A DNA stretch of 64,000 nucleotides from an uncultured Clostridia bacterium. GTDB lineage: Bacteria > Bacillota > Clostridia > TANB77 > CAG-508. Numbering within the stretch: the first letter of the stretch is position 1; each line of letters opens with the position of its first letter. The DNA lies in contig CAKPRA010000008.1 in NCBI GenBank assembly GCA_934180065.1, positions 344 through 64,343 on the forward strand. The letters are read 5' to 3'. Below are positions 54,397 to 62,691 of this stretch, piece by piece. The translations under genes and the position numbers were made by a program. A model generated the notes under the pieces. That model was not told where the DNA came from. It made no database searches and worked only from the letters and a program-made list of their open reading frames with translations.

Positions 54397-55086
54397 ATGG
54401 GAGATATAACAATTTTGGTAGTAGATGACGAATCAAGAATGAGAAAATTAATAAAGGATTTTTTGAAAGTAAAAGGATATCAAATATTAGAAGCTGGTGA
54501 TGGAGAAGAAGCACTTCAAGTCTTTGAAGAGCACAAAAACGCTATCAATCTAATATTATTAGATGTAATGATGCCAAAACTAGATGGGTGGTCTGTTTTA
54601 AGACAAATAAGACAAATTTCAAATTTGCCAATTATAATGCTCACTGCAAGAGGTGAAGAGCAAGATGAATTATTTGGATTTGAATTAGGCGTTGATGAGT
54701 ATATATCAAAGCCATTTAGTCCAAAAATTTTGGTAGCTAGAGTTGAGGCAATTTTGAAAAGAACTCAAGTGAAAGAAAAAGATATCAAAGATTATGGTGG
54801 AATTGTTATTGATTCTGATGGACGTACAGTTGAGGTGGATTCTAAAAAGATTGATTTAAGTTTGAGAGAGTATGAATTATTAAAATATTTGGTAGATAAT
54901 GAGGGAATTGCCCTTTCAAGAGATAAAATACTAAATAATGTATGGAACTATGATTATTATGGTGATTCAAGAACAATAGATAGTCATATTAAAAAAATAA
55001 GACATAAACTTGGAAAAAAAGGTAAATATATACATACAATGAGAGGGGTTGGATATAAATTTGAAGTTGAAGGAAAGAATGGATAA
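54397..55086 (+). CDS. OmpR-family response regulator
   Basis: Receiver (ILVVDDE...LLDVMMP) plus winged-helix output (RTIDSHIKKIRHKL...VRGVGYKF). Confidence 0.9.
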   Translation: MGDITILVVDDESRMRKLIKDFLKVKGYQILEAGDGEEALQVFEEHKNAINLILLDVMMPKLDGWSVLRQIRQISNLPIIMLTARGEEQDELFGFELGVDEYISKPFSPKILVARVEAILKRTQVKEKDIKDYGGIVIDSDGRTVEVDSKKIDLSLREYELLKYLVDNEGIALSRDKILNNVWNYDYYGDSRTIDSHIKKIRHKLGKKGKYIHTMRGVGYKFEVEGKNG

Positions 55087-56599
55087 AAGAATACAAGAAT
55101 CAAGATCTGTAAGAAAAAAACTATTTGTATCCTTATGTGTCGTAATTATTGTTACAATATTCTTTCTTATTATAATTAATAATATTGTTTTAGAAACGTT
55201 TTATATTTATAATAAAAAAGATTCTGTCAAGGCAATATATGAGGAACTTAATGAGAAATATAATAATGAAGTTTCTGATGAAGAAATAAAAGAATTTGTT
55301 AAGGAACAGTCTTCAAAAAATAACTTAGATATCTTTATTAAAAATCCTTACACAGAGCATATAGTAACAAATAGCCAAAATAAGCTTGATGTAATTGATA
55401 AATTGAAAAATACGGTTAATTTTAGTGATAATGGTAAATTGGGTAATATATTATATAAATCAAAAAATGTGGTTATAAGAATGGTTAAAGACGGAATTTC
55501 AAGTAGAAATTATATAGTTTTATTGGCCACTTTAGATAATAATAATGAATTATATATTAGGACTCCAATATCTGCTATTAAGGATAGTTTAAGAATAAGT
55601 AATCAAGTATTATTATTTGTTGGAATGATATCTATTTTAATTTCGGCTGTAATTGCTTCAATTGTTTCGAAAAGATTTTCGAATCCTATATTAGAGCTTA
55701 ATAATATAGCTAAAAAAATGTCTAACTTAGACTTTTCACAAAAGTATGTTCCAAGAAATTCAGAGGATGAACTAAATGAACTTGGAAAAAGTATAAATAT
55801 GTTATCAGAAAAATTAGAGCATACAATTAAAGAGCTACAAGCTAATAATAATGATTTGGAAAGAGATATAAAAGAAAAATCAAAAATTGATGAAATGAGG
55901 ACTCAATTTATTTCTGATGTATCACATGAACTAAAAACTCCAATTGCTCTTATTCAAGGATATGCAGAAGGCTTGATAGAAAATGTTAATAATGATGATG
56001 AATCGAGGAAGTTTTATGCAGAAGTCATATTAGATGAAGCAGATAAAATGGATAAGCTAGTAAAACAGCTTTTGGAATTAATGAAACTTGAATATGGAAA
56101 GAGAAATTTTAATAATACAAAATTTGATATTGTTTCTTTAACAAAAGAGGTCATAAGAAAGTGCGATGTTATGATAAAAGAAAAAAATATCGATGTTACT
56201 TTTGAAAATAATGAGCCAATATATGTTTTTGCTGATGATTTTTATATTGAGCAAGTTATTACAAATTATGTGACAAATGCTATTAAATATTCACAAGAGA
56301 TTAATGGAAAAAAATCAATGGTTATTGATATTGTAGAGAATATGAACAATATTGTAAGAGTTTCTGTTTATAATACTGGAAAAAATTTTTCTGATGATGA
56401 GATGAAATCTATTTGGGGAAGATTTTATAAAATAGATGCTTCTAGAAATAGAGAAAATGGTGGAACAGGAATAGGGCTTTCTTTGGTAAAGGCTGTTATG
56501 AATAATTATAAAAATAAATTTGGTGTTAGAAACAGAGCTAATGGAGTTGAATTTTATTTTGAATTAAATAAACCAAATACTGTAACTAAAAATGATTAA
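55079..56599 (+). CDS. Sensor histidine kinase (2 TM, HAMP, HisKA, HATPase_c)
   Basis: H-box SHELKTPIALI; N and G boxes (NAIKYS, GTGIGLSLV). ATG 55079 overlaps the response-regulator stop. Confidence 0.9.
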   Translation: MDKRIQESRSVRKKLFVSLCVVIIVTIFFLIIINNIVLETFYIYNKKDSVKAIYEELNEKYNNEVSDEEIKEFVKEQSSKNNLDIFIKNPYTEHIVTNSQNKLDVIDKLKNTVNFSDNGKLGNILYKSKNVVIRMVKDGISSRNYIVLLATLDNNNELYIRTPISAIKDSLRISNQVLLFVGMISILISAVIASIVSKRFSNPILELNNIAKKMSNLDFSQKYVPRNSEDELNELGKSINMLSEKLEHTIKELQANNNDLERDIKEKSKIDEMRTQFISDVSHELKTPIALIQGYAEGLIENVNNDDESRKFYAEVILDEADKMDKLVKQLLELMKLEYGKRNFNNTKFDIVSLTKEVIRKCDVMIKEKNIDVTFENNEPIYVFADDFYIEQVITNYVTNAIKYSQEINGKKSMVIDIVENMNNIVRVSVYNTGKNFSDDEMKSIWGRFYKIDASRNRENGGTGIGLSLVKAVMNNYKNKFGVRNRANGVEFYFELNKPNTVTKND

Positions 56600-56653
56600 A
56601 TGTGAATAGTAATAATATGAAAGCTTATTTGATAAAAAAAGATTTACATAATA

Positions 56654-56810
56654 TTGACTTTGCTGTGAAAATTTGGTATAATATAAATGTCTATTGGCAT
56701 GAAACAATGACACTAGTGCAAATAGTGCTAGACGTCGTATAAACTTCTTCGTAGTATATAGGGTATAAACTGCGAATACAAACGCCATGAATTATGGCAG
56801 AAAGGCAAAA
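56654..56810 (+). promoter_or_regulatory. Promoter + ~120-nt conserved structured leader, copy 1
   Basis: TTGACT(56654)-17 nt-TGnTATAAT(56677). Hairpins 56713-56731 and 56784-56798. Homologous to 57385-57538. Confidence 0.6.
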
Positions 56811-57302
56811 ATGGAAAAAGAAAAAATGAAAGAAACTCTTACAGCTCTTGATGAAATAAGAGAAGATATGTCATCAATACATGCAGAGTTTCAGGAGATT
56901 GACACCAATTTATCCTATTGCAGAGAATTTTTAAGCCAAGAAATTTCAGGTTGGAAAGATGTAACTGAATACTGTAATTTAAAGCTGAAAGCATTTAATG
57001 AAAAGCTGATATCGTTTGAAAAAAATGTGGAAGCTTTATCAAAAAATCTGAAAGAGGTTGAATCTGAATTATCTAAGGATAATTGTCAATTCGGACAAAT
57101 AATGAATATTCAGGTTAAAGACATGCCGGTATTATCCCAAAGGACAAAAAACGCATGTAAATATGCAGGTATTTGTTATATGGTTGAGTTCATTACTAGA
57201 TTTAAAACACGTAAGGAAATACTTGAAATTCGAAACATTGGTGTTAAATCTGTTAATGAAATCACAGAAGCACTGGCAAAATATGGAATAGAATTAAAAT
57301 GA
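56811..57302 (+). CDS. Helical protein with RpoA alpha-CTD-like (HhH) C-terminal domain, paralogue 1
   Basis: MEKEKMKE start (aaagg RBS). C-terminus LSQRTKNACKYAGICYMVEFI...ILEIRNIGVKSVNEITEALAKYGIEL resembles the RNAP alpha C-terminal domain. Confidence 0.6.
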   Translation: MEKEKMKETLTALDEIREDMSSIHAEFQEIDTNLSYCREFLSQEISGWKDVTEYCNLKLKAFNEKLISFEKNVEALSKNLKEVESELSKDNCQFGQIMNIQVKDMPVLSQRTKNACKYAGICYMVEFITRFKTRKEILEIRNIGVKSVNEITEALAKYGIELK

Positions 57303-57312
57303 TTTTTTCCAT

Positions 57313-57335
57313 GCGGCACTTAGGTGCCGCTTTTT
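57313..57335 (+). terminator. Intrinsic terminator, copy 1
   Basis: gcggcac ttag gtgccgc ttttt; identical hairpin at 58043-58060. Confidence 0.85.
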
Positions 57336-57384
57336 CTTTTTGATATTGATAATTCTTCTTTTAGCAATAATAATTTACATAATG

Positions 57385-57538
57385 TTGGCTTCGCTGTTAA
57401 AATTTGGTATAATATGGTTGTTTATTGGTATGTACCAATGACACTAGTGTAAATAACACTAGACGCATAAACCTCTTCGTAGTATATTGTGTATAAACTG
57501 CGAATACAAACGCCACAAATTGTGGCAGAAAGGACAAA
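57385..57538 (+). promoter_or_regulatory. Promoter + conserved structured leader, copy 2
   Basis: TTGGCT(57385)-17 nt-TGnTATAAT(57408). Hairpins 57444-57462 and 57512-57526. Confidence 0.6.
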
Positions 57539-58033
57539 ATGGAAAAAGAAAAAATTAATGAAATGTTAAATAATATGGAGGAAGCCAGAGCAAAAATGGC
57601 GCCTTTGTACGAGGGAATTAAAGAATTCGATTCTAATCTCGTATATTTAACAAAATTTTTAAAACAACGGACAATAGGTTGGCAAAACGTACTTGAATAC
57701 TCTAACAAAAAAATTAAATCATTTAAATGTGATTTTATGGAGTTTTCAAAGTTTATTGAGGTTTTGGAAAATGATTTTGCAGAGCTCCAAGAAATTTTGT
57801 CAGAAGAAGAAAATCCGCCATATGGAGAATTTGTTAATCTCCGTATTGATGATATTCCAGAGTTGACAGAACGAGCAAGACATGCTTGCAAGAGAGTCGA
57901 GATAAATACGTTAGGTGACTTTGTAATAAGAATATCCTCAAAAAAAGATTTATTAGACATCAAAAATGTTGGTGTAAAAACCTCAAAACAAATTATAGAA
58001 GTTATGTCTAAATATGGTATTAAATTGGAATAA
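57539..58033 (+). CDS. Helical protein with RpoA alpha-CTD-like C-terminal domain, paralogue 2
   Basis: MEKEKINE...; C-terminus LTERARHACKRVEINTLGDFV...LLDIKNVGVKTSKQIIEVMSKYGIKL. Confidence 0.6.
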   Translation: MEKEKINEMLNNMEEARAKMAPLYEGIKEFDSNLVYLTKFLKQRTIGWQNVLEYSNKKIKSFKCDFMEFSKFIEVLENDFAELQEILSEEENPPYGEFVNLRIDDIPELTERARHACKRVEINTLGDFVIRISSKKDLLDIKNVGVKTSKQIIEVMSKYGIKLE

Positions 58034-58042
58034 ATTTTCCAT

Positions 58043-58066
58043 GCGGCACTTAGGTGCCGCTTTTTT
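58043..58066 (+). terminator. Intrinsic terminator, copy 2
   Basis: gcggcac ttag gtgccgc tttttt. Confidence 0.85.
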
Positions 58067-58074
58067 AACTTCAA

Positions 58075-58665
58075 GGGTAAACCACGGGTTATACCCGTGG
58101 TACAGGAAAGCTTATAGCGTTGAGTAAAGTAACAAAAATCCCCACTCAAAACATGATATAATATTTAAAGTTTGACGGCTAAAAATATTAATAATGAGAG
58201 GAGTGGGGCGTATGAAAAAAGTCCATACACAGATAGTTTAGTACACACAATATGGGAATGCAAGTACCATATTGTGTTTGCACCAAAGTTCAGAAGAAAA
58301 GAAATATACGGAAAATTGAAACAAGAGATAGGAATGATATTGAGAGAATTATGTAGAAGAAAAGAAGTAGAGATAATAAATGCAGAGGCATGTCCAGATC
58401 ATATACATATGTATGTAAGTATATTACCAAAATTATGCATATCATCGTTCATGGGATACTTAAAAGGAAGAAAATCAACTAAAAGAAGATATGATGTCAG
58501 ATCAATTAACAATAAAAGAATATAAAGACCCTTTTAAAGGGTAGTAAGTAATAAGAACGCAAGCGAAAGTGGCGTAAGCCGTCAAACTGATACCGCTTAA
58601 GCGGTGGCTTGTAACAAGGCCTTATAGACCGAAATGAAAATCCACGGGTTTTACCCATGGATTGT
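58075..58665 (+). mobile_element. Decayed IS200-type element (IS200/IS605 family)
   Basis: Subterminal hairpins ccacgggttatacccgtgg (58082-58100) and ccacgggttttacccatgg (58642-58660) flank a damaged tnpA. Confidence 0.65.
58212..58544 (+). pseudogene. tnpA: IS200 tnpA (Y1 HUH transposase) pseudogene: N-terminal frameshift plus internal deletion
   Basis: ATG 58212 (gaggag RBS) is out of frame with ...SLVHTIWECKYHIVFAPKFRRK...CPDHIHMYVSI (A6 run 58215-58220). The reading frame is lost after YLKGRKS. The conserved C-terminal end QLTIKEYKDPFKG* reappears in another frame at 58491-58544. Confidence 0.7.
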
Positions 58666-58954
58666 TATGATACATCGGACAAAATAAATGAAGGAATACA
58701 AGAATTTAAGTAAATAAAAAATGAAATCTTAAATAGAAAATTTTAGGGCTTTATTTTTTTACCTTATAAGAATATAAAAACAAGCAACGATAATATTTTG
58801 AGAGTTACTGAAAATAAAAATGTATTAAAAGTAATGCTTTATATGTTGTAAGAAAATTTCTTATATGCTAAAATAGATTTGAAAGAAAAAATAAGGATTT
58901 CTAAATAAATATAACGTATTTTAACAATATTCAGTGGAATAGGAGAAAGAGATT

Positions 58955-60091
58955 ATGGCTAACAATTCAACTATATATATGCAAAATTATATAAGAGAAG
59001 TTTTTGACATAGTAACAGAGTTATATAAAGATGTTGCACCTGAATTAATTTCAGAATCATTTAAAATTGATGTGAAAGATGTACTTAGTACAAGTAGTCA
59101 AGATATAATGGAAAAACTTAATAATTTAGAAATAAATTATAAAATAGTAGAAGAAAATGATAAAGAACAGATTTGGTATCAAGATTCAGTAAATGAAAAA
59201 TTAGTGGCTAAATTGTCAGGCCAAAAAATTCCTAGTAAATCAGATGAATTAAGATTATATCTGAATGAACCAGAAATATTAGATAAAACATCTGTAGAAG
59301 ATATAAAAAAAGCAAGAGATTTAACAGGTATGTCAAAAATAATTTCAGATATAAATTTTATAAGTCATGAAATGGCACATGCTTTTGAGCATATTATTAA
59401 AGTAGAAAATCCTTCATATATAGATTCAAGTATATATTTAGCAAACAACAATAAAAATATGATAGACTATGATATAGGGGAAGCTTTTGCTGAGTCTATG
59501 GAGAGAATAATATTAGATAGGTTATCAGAAGAGGGGCAACTAGAAAAGTATGGATTAAACCAATATGCAACAAAAGCTGATATAGAAGATGTCTGGAATA
59601 AAAAGAGGATAATTCCTTTTACAAAAAGAGGTATTATAGGTAAAACAGAAGATGGACAAGATATGACTCGTTTGGATTTGGATTTAGAAATATATGAATT
59701 TATGAAAGAAAACGGAATGAAAGAAACAGTTAATTATATGAAAACTTTAGATTTACATAGTTTGTATAGCACTATTCCTAACAAGAATGATATAGGGAAA
59801 ATAGAAGAATTTTGTAAAAACGTATCTGCAGGAAGATATAGTGAGTTTTTGATACCAGAAGGACAAAAATATGAACCAGTTTATTCTAATGATGAAATTT
59901 TAACATTAATTAGACAAATGCAAACAGAAAATAATGTTAAATCAGTACAAGAATTAGGAAAGGAAACACTATTAAATCAAAAAGATATTCAATCTATAGA
60001 TTTTGAAGAAAATTTAATAGTAAAAGAAGAGAGATATATAGAAGCAGAAAGAGAAGAAAAATTAGGAAACATAAGAGGAGAGAAAAAGTAA
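58955..60091 (+). CDS. Hypothetical protein with HExxH metalloprotease-like motif
   Basis: SHEMAHAFEH; RBS aggagaaag. Confidence 0.5.
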   Translation: MANNSTIYMQNYIREVFDIVTELYKDVAPELISESFKIDVKDVLSTSSQDIMEKLNNLEINYKIVEENDKEQIWYQDSVNEKLVAKLSGQKIPSKSDELRLYLNEPEILDKTSVEDIKKARDLTGMSKIISDINFISHEMAHAFEHIIKVENPSYIDSSIYLANNNKNMIDYDIGEAFAESMERIILDRLSEEGQLEKYGLNQYATKADIEDVWNKKRIIPFTKRGIIGKTEDGQDMTRLDLDLEIYEFMKENGMKETVNYMKTLDLHSLYSTIPNKNDIGKIEEFCKNVSAGRYSEFLIPEGQKYEPVYSNDEILTLIRQMQTENNVKSVQELGKETLLNQKDIQSIDFEENLIVKEERYIEAEREEKLGNIRGEKK

Positions 60092-60546
60092 TGATTGACA
60101 TAAAACATGCTAATGCATATAGTGAAGTTTTAGAAATATTAAACTATATATCTATCCAAGATTATAATAAAATACCAAAAGAAAAAATTGAAGTATTTGA
60201 AAAGCTTTCTAATAAAGAATATAAATTTAGTTATAATCCTAATGTTTCATTAGATGAAAATAACGTTTCTAATATTACTAAGACTATAATAGCTATTCTT
60301 TTTAGAGATTACTGGGCAACTGAAATACAAAGAGAAAAAATAATATCAAAACAAAATTATGATAGAGCTATTTTTGAAGAAGAAAAAAGAAAAATTTATA
60401 ATCCAGACAATATTTTTAATAAATATAAGCAAAAAAGTAAAATAGAAGAAAGTACTATTCAAAACGACGTTGCTTTAGTAGAGCATAAAGAATCAATTCT
60501 TAAGAGATTAATAAATAAAATAAAAAGTTTTTTTCATATAAATTGA
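60091..60546 (+). CDS. Hypothetical protein, translationally coupled to the upstream gene
   Basis: TAATG overlap at 60088-60093. Terminator aaataggttact...agtagcctattt + T-run at ~60571-60608. Confidence 0.5.
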   Translation: MIDIKHANAYSEVLEILNYISIQDYNKIPKEKIEVFEKLSNKEYKFSYNPNVSLDENNVSNITKTIIAILFRDYWATEIQREKIISKQNYDRAIFEEEKRKIYNPDNIFNKYKQKSKIEESTIQNDVALVEHKESILKRLINKIKSFFHIN

Positions 60547-60966
60547 TAAAAATGATATATATTAATATAAATAGGTTACTAAATATATAGTAGCCTATTT
60601 ATTTTTTGTATTAGTAATCCAAATTTCAAATTCTTTTGCAGAGATTTCCTTATTTTGATATTTACTTTCATAATGAATTTCATTCCTTTCTCGATTCGCT
60701 CGAAGGCTCACATAGGTATGAAAGCCTCAATAATTTTCCATTAAAGTTAGAGAGAAAAATAAGCAAAAAAGAAAGGCGTTCTATTCAATGTGTTAGGACG
60801 ACGCAGTAAATTCTCATATTGGTACAGCATTGCGGTGGTGTGAGAGGGGAGGAACACACTAAGTGTTATCCTCTACTCGATTTTTTCTTGACAGATTTTT
60901 ATTAAAAATATATAATTTGTTTGTGAAAATAATAAATTCCACAATTTTTATAAGGGGAATAAACAT

Positions 60967-62691
60967 ATGAAGAAAAAAGTATTAATTTGTATTGTTTCTA
61001 TAATTTTAATAATAGGGATAATCTTGATTATAAATATTAATAAAGATAATAAAAAATATGAATATACAATTGAAAAACTAGGCGAAGCAAATTATTTTTT
61101 ATTAATGAAGGAAAATAAATATGGGATTATAGATAAGCAAGGCAATATTATAATTGATCCATTATATGATATTATCGAAATGCCAAATCCATCTAAAGAT
61201 ATATTCATTTGTAAAAGTAATTATAATGCAGAAAGTAATGAATATAATGTTCAAGTTTTTAATAGCAAAAAAGAGCCAATATTGTATCAATATTATATTG
61301 TTGAAGCTATACCATTAAATAATATTGAAAATAATGGTTTTTTCGAAAAGAGTGTATTAAAATATAAGTCTGAAGGGTTGTATGGATTAATAGACTTATC
61401 AGGGAAAAAAATAACAGATGCTATTTATGAATCAATTGATGGGTTTGAATATAAAGAAGGCATGTTACTTGTAAAAAAATCTGGAAAATATGGAATTATT
61501 AATATAAATGGAGCTGTTATTGTTAAAAATAAATATGATGAAATAACATGTGATGGATATTTTAATAAAGATTCAAACTATAATGATAGTGGATATATCG
61601 TAGGAACAAGAACTGATAACGGTATGAGATATGGATATATAGATACAAATCGTAAAATATTGTTGAAAAACGATTTTAATGATATATATAGAATTACAGA
61701 TAAATATGATAATAATATTTATATTGTAGCATATAAGAATGGAAAAGCTGGATTATATAAAAACAAAAAAATAATGTTAAAACATGATTATGAAGATATT
61801 TTATATAATGCAGATAATGATTTATTAATATTACAAAAAGCATCAAAACAGGGTGTTTCGAAGTTTGATGGAACTGCTATAGTTCCAATTGAATATGATA
61901 ATATCTTTTTTGCTGGAAATTATATCAATGCTCAAAAGGGTGAGAATATAGATATATTCGATTCAAATGGAAATAAAGATTCTAACACAGAATATATAAG
62001 TAAACAAAATTTTAATAATAATAAATATGAGATTGTTTCTACATCAAAAGATGAATATAAAGTTATAATTAAAGATAGTGATAAAGTAATTGAAAATGGA
62101 TATTCATATATACAATACTTATCTGATAATTATTTTATGGTTCAAAAAGATAATTTGTTTGGAATTATAGATGATTCTGGAAAATATATTATTGAACCAA
62201 AATATAAGATAATTCAACCAATATATGATTATAATATAATTGAATTGATAAATGATAAAAATAATGTTATCTTAATTGATAATAAAATGAAAGAGCTTGC
62301 AGAATTTAAGGAAGGAAATATTTACAATATAGGTAATTTCTTGAAGGTATCTACTAGCAATGATGTAAAGTATATAAATAAATCTGGAGAATTAGTGGAA
62401 AATTTAGAGGCTTTTTCAAATAATAAGTTATTTGCTTTTTGTGAAAAGAATAAATGGGGATTTAAAGATAAAGACGGTAATATTGTAGTTAAACCTATAT
62501 ATGAATTAGTTACTGAATTTAATGAATTTGGATTTGCTGGAATTAAATCTAAAGGATTATGGGGATCTATAGACGAAAATGGTACAGTTATTAAGAATCC
62601 ATCATATAGTTTAAATCAAGAGCCAAGCTTTATTAATGAATATTATAAAGTTGATTTAGGATATGGAGAGCCATATTATACTAATTCATAG
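60967..62691 (+). CDS. WG-repeat (KWG-type beta-propeller-like repeat) protein with N-terminal membrane anchor
   Basis: Many repeats of the type GKYGIINxxGxxIIxPxYDxI; N-terminal TM. Confidence 0.7.
   Translation: MKKKVLICIVSIILIIGIILIININKDNKKYEYTIEKLGEANYFLLMKENKYGIIDKQGNIIIDPLYDIIEMPNPSKDIFICKSNYNAESNEYNVQVFNSKKEPILYQYYIVEAIPLNNIENNGFFEKSVLKYKSEGLYGLIDLSGKKITDAIYESIDGFEYKEGMLLVKKSGKYGIININGAVIVKNKYDEITCDGYFNKDSNYNDSGYIVGTRTDNGMRYGYIDTNRKILLKNDFNDIYRITDKYDNNIYIVAYKNGKAGLYKNKKIMLKHDYEDILYNADNDLLILQKASKQGVSKFDGTAIVPIEYDNIFFAGNYINAQKGENIDIFDSNGNKDSNTEYISKQNFNNNKYEIVSTSKDEYKVIIKDSDKVIENGYSYIQYLSDNYFMVQKDNLFGIIDDSGKYIIEPKYKIIQPIYDYNIIELINDKNNVILIDNKMKELAEFKEGNIYNIGNFLKVSTSNDVKYINKSGELVENLEAFSNNKLFAFCEKNKWGFKDKDGNIVVKPIYELVTEFNEFGFAGIKSKGLWGSIDENGTVIKNPSYSLNQEPSFINEYYKVDLGYGEPYYTNS

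Follow-up and report, generated by a model that had tools for sequence, protein, structure and literature searches.

What keeps the non-coding parts of a gene more alike than the gene itself? The question is raised by two tandem gene cassettes in a 64,000-nucleotide stretch of DNA from an uncultured Clostridia bacterium (contig CAKPRA010000008.1, assembly GCA_934180065.1); this whole stretch is called the window here, and all positions are given in its coordinates. Each cassette encodes a small protein that ends in a domain resembling the C-terminal domain of the RNA polymerase alpha subunit (alpha-CTD), and each gene is preceded by a promoter and a leader of about 120 nucleotides (nt). A sequence-only reading had proposed that the leader is a cis-regulatory RNA, possibly a riboswitch, a protein-binding leader or a thermosensor. 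Our analysis indicates that the leader is probably a real sense-strand RNA structure acting in cis. As an answer to the question as a whole we tentatively favor, at a probability of about 0.45, a conserved expression frame whose 5′ untranslated region (UTR) acts in cis as a constitutive leader that stabilizes the message and presents it for translation.

The two units and their leaders

The units were described from a reading of positions 56400-58400 and from an alignment of A with B. Two complete transcription units with parallel layouts are present, A at 56641-57335 and B at 57372-58066. The coordinates reported before check out, and each unit consists of a promoter, a ~120-nt leader, the Shine-Dalgarno sequence AGAAAGG, an open reading frame (ORF) beginning ATGGAAAAAGAAAAAAT and a terminator. 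It is also true, as had been claimed, that the flanks are better conserved than the genes. Promoter plus leader are identical at 141 of 168 positions (84%), and the leaders alone are 87% identical with 17 scattered differences, versus 57% nucleotide and 37% amino acid (aa) identity in the coding regions, of which the first 17 bases are common to both. By the Nei-Gojobori method the coding comparison gives a saturated pS of 0.73, a dN of 0.50 and a dN/dS of 0.17, which bears out the strong protein divergence noted before, and the amino acid-changing sites are less conserved than the leader. At the other end of each unit, on the plus strand, lies an intrinsic terminator (57303-57335 in A, with the stem-loop at 57313-57330; 58034-58066 in B, with the stem-loop at 58043-58060). 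The terminators consist of GCGGCACTTAGGTGCCGC plus a T-run (57313-57335 and 58043-58066), and the 31-nt block enclosing them shows no difference between A and B. A dispersed repeat was ruled out as their source, as there are two copies only across 61 genomes.

Both promoters are of the extended −10 type, in agreement with the earlier description. That of unit A (56643-56689, plus strand) combines an upstream TTTACATAAT, the −35 element TTGACT (56654-56659), a 17-nt spacer and TGgTATAAT (56674-56682, with TATAAT at 56677-56682); in a consensus scan it has 11 of 12 matches plus the TG and places the predicted start at ~56689-56690. That of unit B (57374-57420, plus strand) has the same TTTACATAAT, TTGGCT at 57385-57390, a 17-nt spacer and TGgTATAAT with TATAAT at 57408-57413, giving 10 of 12 matches plus the TG. 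This similarity between A and B needs no special explanation, because the strong-promoter module (TTTACATAA, TTGACTTT, AAAATTTGGTATAAT) is a clade-wide consensus that precedes unrelated genes in many related genomes; the module at 56643-56689 recurs at loci L004, L005, L006, L011 and L014 with 80-89% identity over 40-48 nt. The conserved block upstream of the −35 element is part of this clade-wide consensus, and the module may contain a conserved proximal UP-like element.

The leaders themselves are another matter. On the plus strand they occupy 56690-56810 in unit A (~121 nt) and 57421-57538 in unit B (~118 nt), and they are predicted to fold into four hairpins, P0 to P3. In A these lie at 56691-56710 (P0), 56713-56731 (P1), 56748-56776 (P2) and 56784-56798 (P3), with the Shine-Dalgarno sequence AGAAAGG at 56799-56805; the corresponding positions in B are 57422-57441, 57444-57462, 57476-57504 and 57512-57526, with the Shine-Dalgarno sequence at 57527-57533. 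Minimum free energies are −31.7 kcal/mol for the A leader (z = −3.9 versus shuffled controls) and −33.0 kcal/mol for the B leader (z = −4.1), whereas the antisense strands fold with z = −0.2 (A) and −2.7 (B). The asymmetry arises because five G-U pairs exist only in the sense RNA, the other strand having A-C mismatches there, and it argues for RNA structure and against DNA palindromes.

The sequence-only reading had singled out P1 and P3, correctly with regard to both hairpins and their substitutions, but it missed P0 and P2. P2 is the largest hairpin, with an interrupted stem of 12 base pairs (bp), and its outer 8 bp are invariant, as is the linker between P2 and P3. P1 and P3 are 100% paired across six distinct leaders. 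The hairpin loops AAAUA and AAU and the single-stranded linkers are invariant, and the pairs that close the loops change with compensation; the differences between A and B are concentrated at the tops of P1, P2 and P3. P0, the hairpin at the predicted 5′ end, is not conserved between the leaders. It would begin 1-3 nt past the predicted start, has uncompensated mismatches in three lineages (among the six distinct leaders), and is weaker in A-type leaders and in unit B of L094.

Pairing in P1 and P3 does survive substitution, as had been proposed, in that all seven substitutions in these hairpins keep their pairs. Not all of them are compensatory in the strict sense. In P1, where pairing had rightly been seen to persist, just one pair is changed on both sides (C-G in A to U-A in B), and two other changes are one-sided, from wobble to Watson-Crick. 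In P3, U-A becomes C-G and G-U becomes A-U, and the leader of allele L033 carries U-G at the former pair, which is the wobble intermediate expected in a U-A, U-G, C-G series. Two-sided pair changes in the leader number only two. Overall, the 66 paired columns contain 11 of the A/B substitutions and the 58 unpaired ones contain 6, meaning that stems are not depleted of changes.

We then considered whether this structure looks like a switch. The Shine-Dalgarno sequence, one base past the end of P3, is invariant, precedes the AUG by 5 nt in both units and by 7 nt in L033, and is predicted to be unpaired; in partition-function folds its unpaired probability is 0.62-0.85 in all seven variants (0.75 in unit A). 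Neither a terminator/antiterminator nor a helix that sequesters the Shine-Dalgarno sequence, and hence no expression platform, was seen in the predicted folds of these seven variants. On the plus strand no leader hairpin is followed by a U-run, and there is no terminator-like site within the leaders. Because the Shine-Dalgarno sequence is open in all variants and no hairpin precedes a U-run, the design appears constitutive rather than switching. An RNA thermometer is not supported, with the Shine-Dalgarno sequence predicted open at 37 °C in every variant and P3 stopping one base short of it, and neither is a riboswitch, for which there is no expression platform, no aptamer conserved across lineages and no statistically supported covariation. 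A cmscan search with Rfam 15 over 55500-59500 at E ≤ 10 found no match in either leader, in keeping with the earlier statement that no known motif could be recognized. Known riboswitches, thermometers and ribosomal protein leaders in Rfam likewise place a structured leader of >100 nt between promoter and Shine-Dalgarno sequence and show compensated stem changes, but the leader described here differs from them in having no Rfam match, no sequestering helix, no terminator/antiterminator, no multi-helix junction and no phylogenetic breadth. Of the proposed cis-regulatory RNA, then, the strand-specific, thermodynamically unusual fold with compensated stems stands, and the switch types are unsupported.

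Three coding explanations of the leader were also tried and rejected. A leader peptide does not fit, since the small sense ORFs differ (MTLVQIVLDVV in A, MTLV in B) and the upstream ATG precedes the predicted start. An alternative start within P3, which would give 171 aa, is not present in B and is out of frame in L033. A hydrophobic antisense ORF (56564-56788, minus strand) is without a Shine-Dalgarno sequence, has residues changed by 11 of the 17 A/B substitutions, and is unconserved past the leader.

A separate observation concerns the heptamer TAYAAAC, which occurs three times in the A leader (56738-56744, 56764-56770 and 56777-56783, at spacings of 26 and 13 nt) and at 57492-57498 and 57505-57511 in the unit B leader. 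The copies lie largely in or beside the single-stranded linkers, and from the frequency in the window ~0.03 would be expected per 121 nt, a comparison that applies to a repeat noticed post hoc. The heptamer could be a protein-binding repeat.

Distribution and diversity

Is the leader conserved beyond this genome? Homologous leaders, which the sequence-only reading had proposed to collect by BLASTN or Infernal, are not found beyond one species. A BLAST-type DNA search of 60 relatives returned only generic promoter-like and Shine-Dalgarno-like fragments. The covariance model R1, built on the leader, was applied to 401 genomes of the order. It gives the leaders themselves 143 and 153 bits (153 for unit B); its best other score is 24 bits, and none of its hits is near an alpha-CTD gene. 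Exact leader cores had no match in genome and viral collections, and a leader pattern search of metagenomes gave two chance matches only, L066 (within a coding region) and L067, both unrelated. The sequence-only suggestion of a riboswitch or thermosensor is unsupported on this count as well as on the open Shine-Dalgarno sequence and the lack of a U-run hairpin.

The proteins give the same picture. A profile search of 1.84 billion cluster representatives recovered two full-length clusters at 50% identity, one A-type and one B-type, and all other matches cover the alpha-CTD domain alone. Within the genus the only protein matches are rpoA and a few unrelated small alpha-CTD proteins whose upstream regions are unrelated, and a protein pattern scan of genome contigs had no match. 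The leader and the full-length protein family are restricted to one species. Because there is no homologue outside it, neither broad conservation nor covariation of the grade that R-scape requires can be demonstrated. By GroEL, the nearest named relative is Clostridium sp. CAG:273, at 85% aa identity. In the closest sequenced species, a comparison of 54397-62691 with L102-L126 revealed no block of response regulator, histidine kinase, cassette and WG-repeat gene behind groEL, and the whole block may be accessory to the species of the window.

Within the species we compared human-gut metagenome contigs. Identity to the window is 98.7-99.4% for the histidine kinase gene upstream of the cassette and 97.9% for the WG-repeat gene. 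Some strains have a single cassette between the histidine kinase gene and the WG-repeat gene; the others have the A-B tandem, followed by a remnant of an IS200-type element and a strain-variable island. Gene B is 99-100% identical across at least 34 metagenome contigs. The alleles are mosaic, and the single-cassette ones have 66-98% protein identity to A and dS of 0.25-0.69, which makes them much older than the flanks.

The boundaries of this variation are sharp. Between L033 and L034 there are 4 differences in 657 positions of the histidine kinase gene, 1 in 42 of the intergenic region, 0 in 47 of the promoter and 2 in 118 of the leader; the coding region has 92 in 492 (19%), versus 3 in 207 in the flanks. 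The divergence begins sharply after codon 6, past the conserved first codons. A four-gamete configuration is present inside the leader, at columns 11 and 76. Because the coding region is a recombining, deeply polymorphic set of alleles, the finding that flanks are more conserved than coding sequence is partly a signature of recombination.

The diversity profile suggests that this is only part of the account. Nucleotide diversity (pi) rises from 0.015 in the histidine kinase gene to 0.10 in the intergenic region, then declines through the promoter (0.067) to 0.028 in the leader and climbs again to 0.11-0.21 in the coding region, so that the leader is a valley rather than a point on the steady fall with distance that linkage to the coding region alone would produce. 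L098 and L034 differ at 3 of 118 leader positions and at 13 of 89 upstream positions (Fisher p = 0.003), and other between-haplogroup pairs give p values of 0.03-0.07 for leader versus upstream. The leader diversity valley fits constraint on the leader itself. Gene conversion, which the sequence-only reading had named as a possible reason for the similarity, therefore applies in part: the coding region recombines within the species with a sharp breakpoint, but the leader is a local minimum of diversity.

Explanations of the conserved frame

In the reading that we favor, the gene is hypervariable, is confined to one species and encodes a small protein of dimer type, made of a helical hairpin and an alpha-CTD-like DNA-binding domain; it sits in a conserved expression frame. 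The frame comprises a near-consensus constitutive promoter, the ~120-nt four-hairpin 5′ UTR, the exposed Shine-Dalgarno sequence, the A-rich start ATGGAAAAAGAAAAAAT and the intrinsic terminator; the strain of the window has two deeply diverged versions of the cassette, A and B, in tandem, and other strains have one. We infer that transcription begins at the predicted start and that P1-P3, with P3 beside the open Shine-Dalgarno sequence, protect the mRNA from 5′-end-dependent decay and present the ribosome-binding site. The leader is most likely not a ligand- or temperature-sensing switch and would work constitutively. A constitutive function is the most economical one because the Shine-Dalgarno sequence is open, there is no terminator and the promoter is close to consensus. 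The contrast between conserved flanks and diverged coding regions would then have two causes, with relative weights that we infer: selection on the expression signals, and homologous recombination or gene conversion in which the conserved flanks serve as crossover sites and uncouple the history of the flanks from that of the old coding alleles.

This proposal has precedents. In Bacillus subtilis, structured 5′ UTRs and initiating ribosomes control the access of RNase J1 and RNase Y (PMC5737220, PMC3997798), and Firmicute 5′ stabilizer leaders include those of B. subtilis aprE and hbs, of ermC, and the STAB-SD of B. thuringiensis cry3A (PMC3997798; for hbs, PMC5737220). The cassettes resemble these in having a strong promoter, a structured 5′ UTR of ~100 nt and a strong, accessible Shine-Dalgarno sequence right after a hairpin, and in having no switching element. 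They differ in that there is no sequence or Rfam relationship, that the leader is species-private with its 5′-terminal hairpin the least conserved, and that stabilization is a prediction here.

Several points weigh against a constitutive stabilizer. The start site, and hence the position of P0 at the 5′ end, is predicted only, and P0, the hairpin that a 5′ stabilizer would need most, is the least conserved. The leaders are 87% identical, loops and linkers included, despite saturated synonymous sites and a dN of 0.5 in the genes; a constraint on structure alone seldom leaves so much identity, which suggests homogenization, and the identical terminator loop and flanks look like conversion rather than selection. 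The covariation consists of ~3 independent events, transitions throughout. With four sequences, 59 of 500 column shuffles match the observed covariation, and seven random transitions in P1 and P3 would preserve all 13 pairs with a probability of 0.067, although for seven random substitutions of any kind the probability is 0.0004. With six sequences, 4 of 500 shuffles match the observed score, but the two B-type rows are not independent. Covariation cannot become significant with the present data because there are only six distinct leaders. The leader structure is plausible, and statistical proof of it is lacking.

In a different account, which we regard as less likely, the leader has no RNA function at all. 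Promoter, leader and terminator would be homology arms, homogenized by tandem gene conversion and allelic recombination around a coding region under long-term balancing or diversifying selection, and the hairpins would be chance or products of template switching at quasi-palindromes. Breakpoints that are sharp at the coding boundaries and the four gametes within the leader are what such recombination would leave. The 31-nt terminator block, loop included, is identical between A and B in one genome, and yet allelic terminators differ between strains (pi 0.078); unit B of L094 has two A-type bases within 5 nt of its promoter. P1 and P3 of B are perfect DNA palindromes, as correction by a single template-switch event would give. 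To this may be added that the covariation is not significant and that non-synonymous sites are less conserved than the leader. However, the account leaves unexplained why the sense strand folds with z of about −4 when the antisense fold of the A-type leader is unremarkable, why G-U pairs are present, why L033 has a U-G intermediate between U-A and C-G, and why the leader is a diversity valley relative to the upstream intergenic region and promoter. The 17 scattered leader differences between A and B also speak against a recent conversion tract. The case as a whole carries a caution of wider use, namely that recombination around a hypervariable gene can leave non-coding sequence better conserved than coding sequence without strong constraint on an RNA.

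Known systems show that conserved brackets around variable genes can act as crossover points. Promoter-early stem-loop (PeSL) elements are mobile regulatory cassettes of T4-type phages that mediate the shuffling of ORFs (PMC2839356, PMC4122927). As at the locus studied here, conserved promoter and stem-loop or terminator motifs bracket variable ORFs, and related genomes differ in the ORFs or in their number at the slot, which here holds one or two cassettes. Unlike PeSL, the locus lies on the chromosome, where a two-component system and a WG-repeat gene flank it, rather than in a phage hyperplastic region; its bracketed ORFs belong to one homologous family and are not unrelated; and its conserved 5′ arm is a long structured leader instead of a short promoter with one stem-loop. 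The resemblance is one of analogy, not of membership.

Within-species hypervariable specificity loci with conserved flanks, such as the staphylococcal agr groups and the pneumococcal comCD pherotypes, offer a second comparison. The locus shares with these its deep allelic lineages (dS 0.25-0.7, and >2 for B), flanking genes that are 98-99% identical, and sharp boundaries. It differs in that a single intracellular protein of DNA-binding type varies, not a signal-receptor pair, and we know of no partner that could drive diversification of the alpha-CTD-like gene.

A less probable alternative still, which we judge unlikely, is that the leader is a regulatory RNA bound in trans by the encoded alpha-CTD-like protein, in an autoregulation that might be specific to A or to B, by another protein or by a small RNA; the bound factor would modulate translation or decay. 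A binding partner could account for loops AAAUA and AAU and linkers that stay fixed while the loop-closing pairs change with compensation, although the eight invariant loop bases are not significant at 87% overall identity. Differences at the tops of P1-P3 would suit specificity determinants that co-evolve with the diverged proteins, and the strong constitutive promoter leaves space for post-transcriptional control. The three TAYAAAC heptamers in or beside linkers, where ~0.03 would be expected, and a start-codon region complementary to the 3′ UTR in some alleles fit as well; both features were noticed post hoc, and the complementarity is not kept in L034 or A. Two further objections concern the means of control. 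The predicted folds show no expression platform and leave the Shine-Dalgarno sequence open in every case. The alpha-CTD fold is a binder of the DNA minor groove, not a known binder of RNA hairpins, and the DNA-contact residues are retained in these proteins. A narrower version, in which the leader would be a lineage-specific protein-binding element by which each alpha-CTD-like paralogue controls its own mRNA, with the tops of P1-P3 as co-evolving specificity determinants and the loops fixed, seems to us quite improbable; if it were true, the locus would hold matched RNA-protein pairs kept polymorphic in the population.

Finally, we consider it very improbable that the inverted repeats are DNA operators past the start site, bound by the OmpR-type regulator or the alpha-CTD-like proteins for roadblock or autorepression. 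In favor of this, the genes for the response regulator and histidine kinase precede the cassette in every case, TAYAAAC recurs directly at 26- and 13-bp spacing and the proteins retain the alpha-CTD DNA-binding determinant. Against it, A-type P1, P2 and P3 are imperfect as DNA palindromes and need the G-U pairs of RNA to pair fully; a protein operator is not expected to undergo compensatory changes that preserve symmetry while altering sequence; and OmpR-family sites are direct repeats with a period of ~10-11 bp, which 13 bp does not fit.

To return to the expression frame with a stabilizing leader, a functional leader would be a 5′ UTR element not described before, belonging to an uncultured lineage of human-gut Clostridia related to Clostridium sp. 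CAG:273, and would offer a compact, probably constitutive high-expression frame in organisms without expression tools.

One more feature of the units touches on the fate of the message. The start-codon stretch AUGGAAAAA is complementary over 8-10 bp to the 3′ UTR sequence UUUUUCCAU, directly 5′ of the terminator stem; the stretches involved are 56811-56819 with 57304-57312 in A and 57539-57546 with 58035-58042 in B, and the complementarity is also present in L033. In folds of the full-length mRNA this pairing has p ≥ 0.9 in L033 and 0.17 in B, and is not formed in A and L034, in which the 3′ motif is mutated. It recalls the interaction between the 5′ and 3′ UTRs of hbs (PMC5737220), from which it differs in being inconsistent between alleles.

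Proteins and neighborhood

What, then, is the gene that is held in this frame? Gene A (56811-57302, plus strand) encodes 163 aa and gene B (57539-58033, plus strand) 164 aa; the size of 164 aa previously given for both holds for B alone. At the N-terminus of protein A, residues 2-87 form an antiparallel two-helix hairpin; at the C-terminus, residues ~99-160 form an alpha-CTD-like helix-hairpin-helix domain. B, at 37% aa identity, has the same architecture. That architecture, a helical N-terminus joined to an alpha-CTD-like C-terminus, had been recognized from the sequence and is borne out in three ways. PF03118 matches A with 35 bits and B with 34 bits (gathering cut-off 23.8). An AlphaFold2 model of A (pLDDT 86) has long helices at 2-42 and 48-87, followed by a compact helix-hairpin-helix domain. 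In Foldseek the C-terminal domain of this model superposes on the Escherichia coli alpha-CTD (1lb2_E) with a TM score of 0.81 and a root mean square deviation of 1.9 Å, and matches to solved RpoA chains reach E values down to 2e-5.

Alignment to clostridial RpoA shows that LSxRxxNxxK and NxGxKS are kept (the R..N and G.KS motifs). We take these residues to be the equivalents of the DNA-binding “265 determinant” of E. coli alpha; the C-terminal 60-65 residues of A and B would accordingly keep the presumed counterparts of R265, N268, G296, K298 and S299, with H for N268 and T for S299 in B. The fold of these 60-65 residues is common to the C-terminal domain of RpoA (PF03118; 1LB2, 1COO). Unlike RpoA, A and B are without the alpha N-terminal domain and have in its place a ~90-residue two-helix hairpin seen in no other protein cluster. 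They are not full-length RpoA, as the match to TIGR02027 reaches 43.9 bits where the cut-off is 227.8, and involves the C-terminus only; the true rpoA (318 aa) lies elsewhere in the genome (G000:C2:51369-51614). An origin in defense or phage was also rejected: there is no PHROG family match for A or B, the PADLOC matches are coiled-coil noise, and no viral fold match is significant. Positive selection on the coding region was not seen, with dN/dS values of 0.17-0.36.

The cargo is the more intriguing part of the locus, being a stand-alone alpha-CTD-like protein that is found in one species beside an OmpR-type two-component system and whose alleles diverged long before the species arose. At UP elements or activators, it could act as a competitor or a mimic of the polymerase alpha tail. 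Genomes G027 and G016 of other genus members carry an unrelated-looking 151-aa protein that also has a helical N-terminus and an alpha-CTD (L037 1267-1767 and L038 1312-1767). Its gene has a different upstream region and, close by, genes for a receiver-domain protein and an XRE-type regulator. There may be a link between small alpha-CTD proteins and response regulators.

One variant of the gene itself deserves mention. In L096 (2250-2734) and L097, which come from independent samples, an A-run near codon 71 of an L033-type allele is longer by two A. The frameshift leaves a 77-aa C-terminal ORF and an intact leader; possible explanations are a pseudogene, phase variation at the homopolymer or an error of assembly.

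In every case the cassette is immediately preceded by the genes for the OmpR/PhoB-type response regulator and the histidine kinase (54397-56599, plus strand). Directly 3′ of the unit B terminator is the IS200-type remnant (58075-58665, plus strand), at which the strain-variable island starts. A sub-threshold match to Rfam STnc490, a 5′ structure of IS200, covers 58080-58206 at the left end of the remnant (42 bits, E = 3.6e-6, gathering score 56) and is the one notable match of the Rfam search over 55500-59500; in other strains Y1_Tnp ORFs occupy the position of the remnant and the content downstream varies. A mobile element, or palindrome-associated transposable element (PATE), mobilized by IS200 was considered for the cassette and rejected, as its position is fixed in all strains and its hairpins are unlike IS200 ends. 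Cassette B forms the left edge of the variable island: past its terminator, strains have the IS200 remnant with a gene pair for an HExxH protein of 378 aa and a protein of 151 aa, or Peptidase_C39-like and radical-SAM genes, or NUDIX and HD genes (loci L070, L071 and L073).

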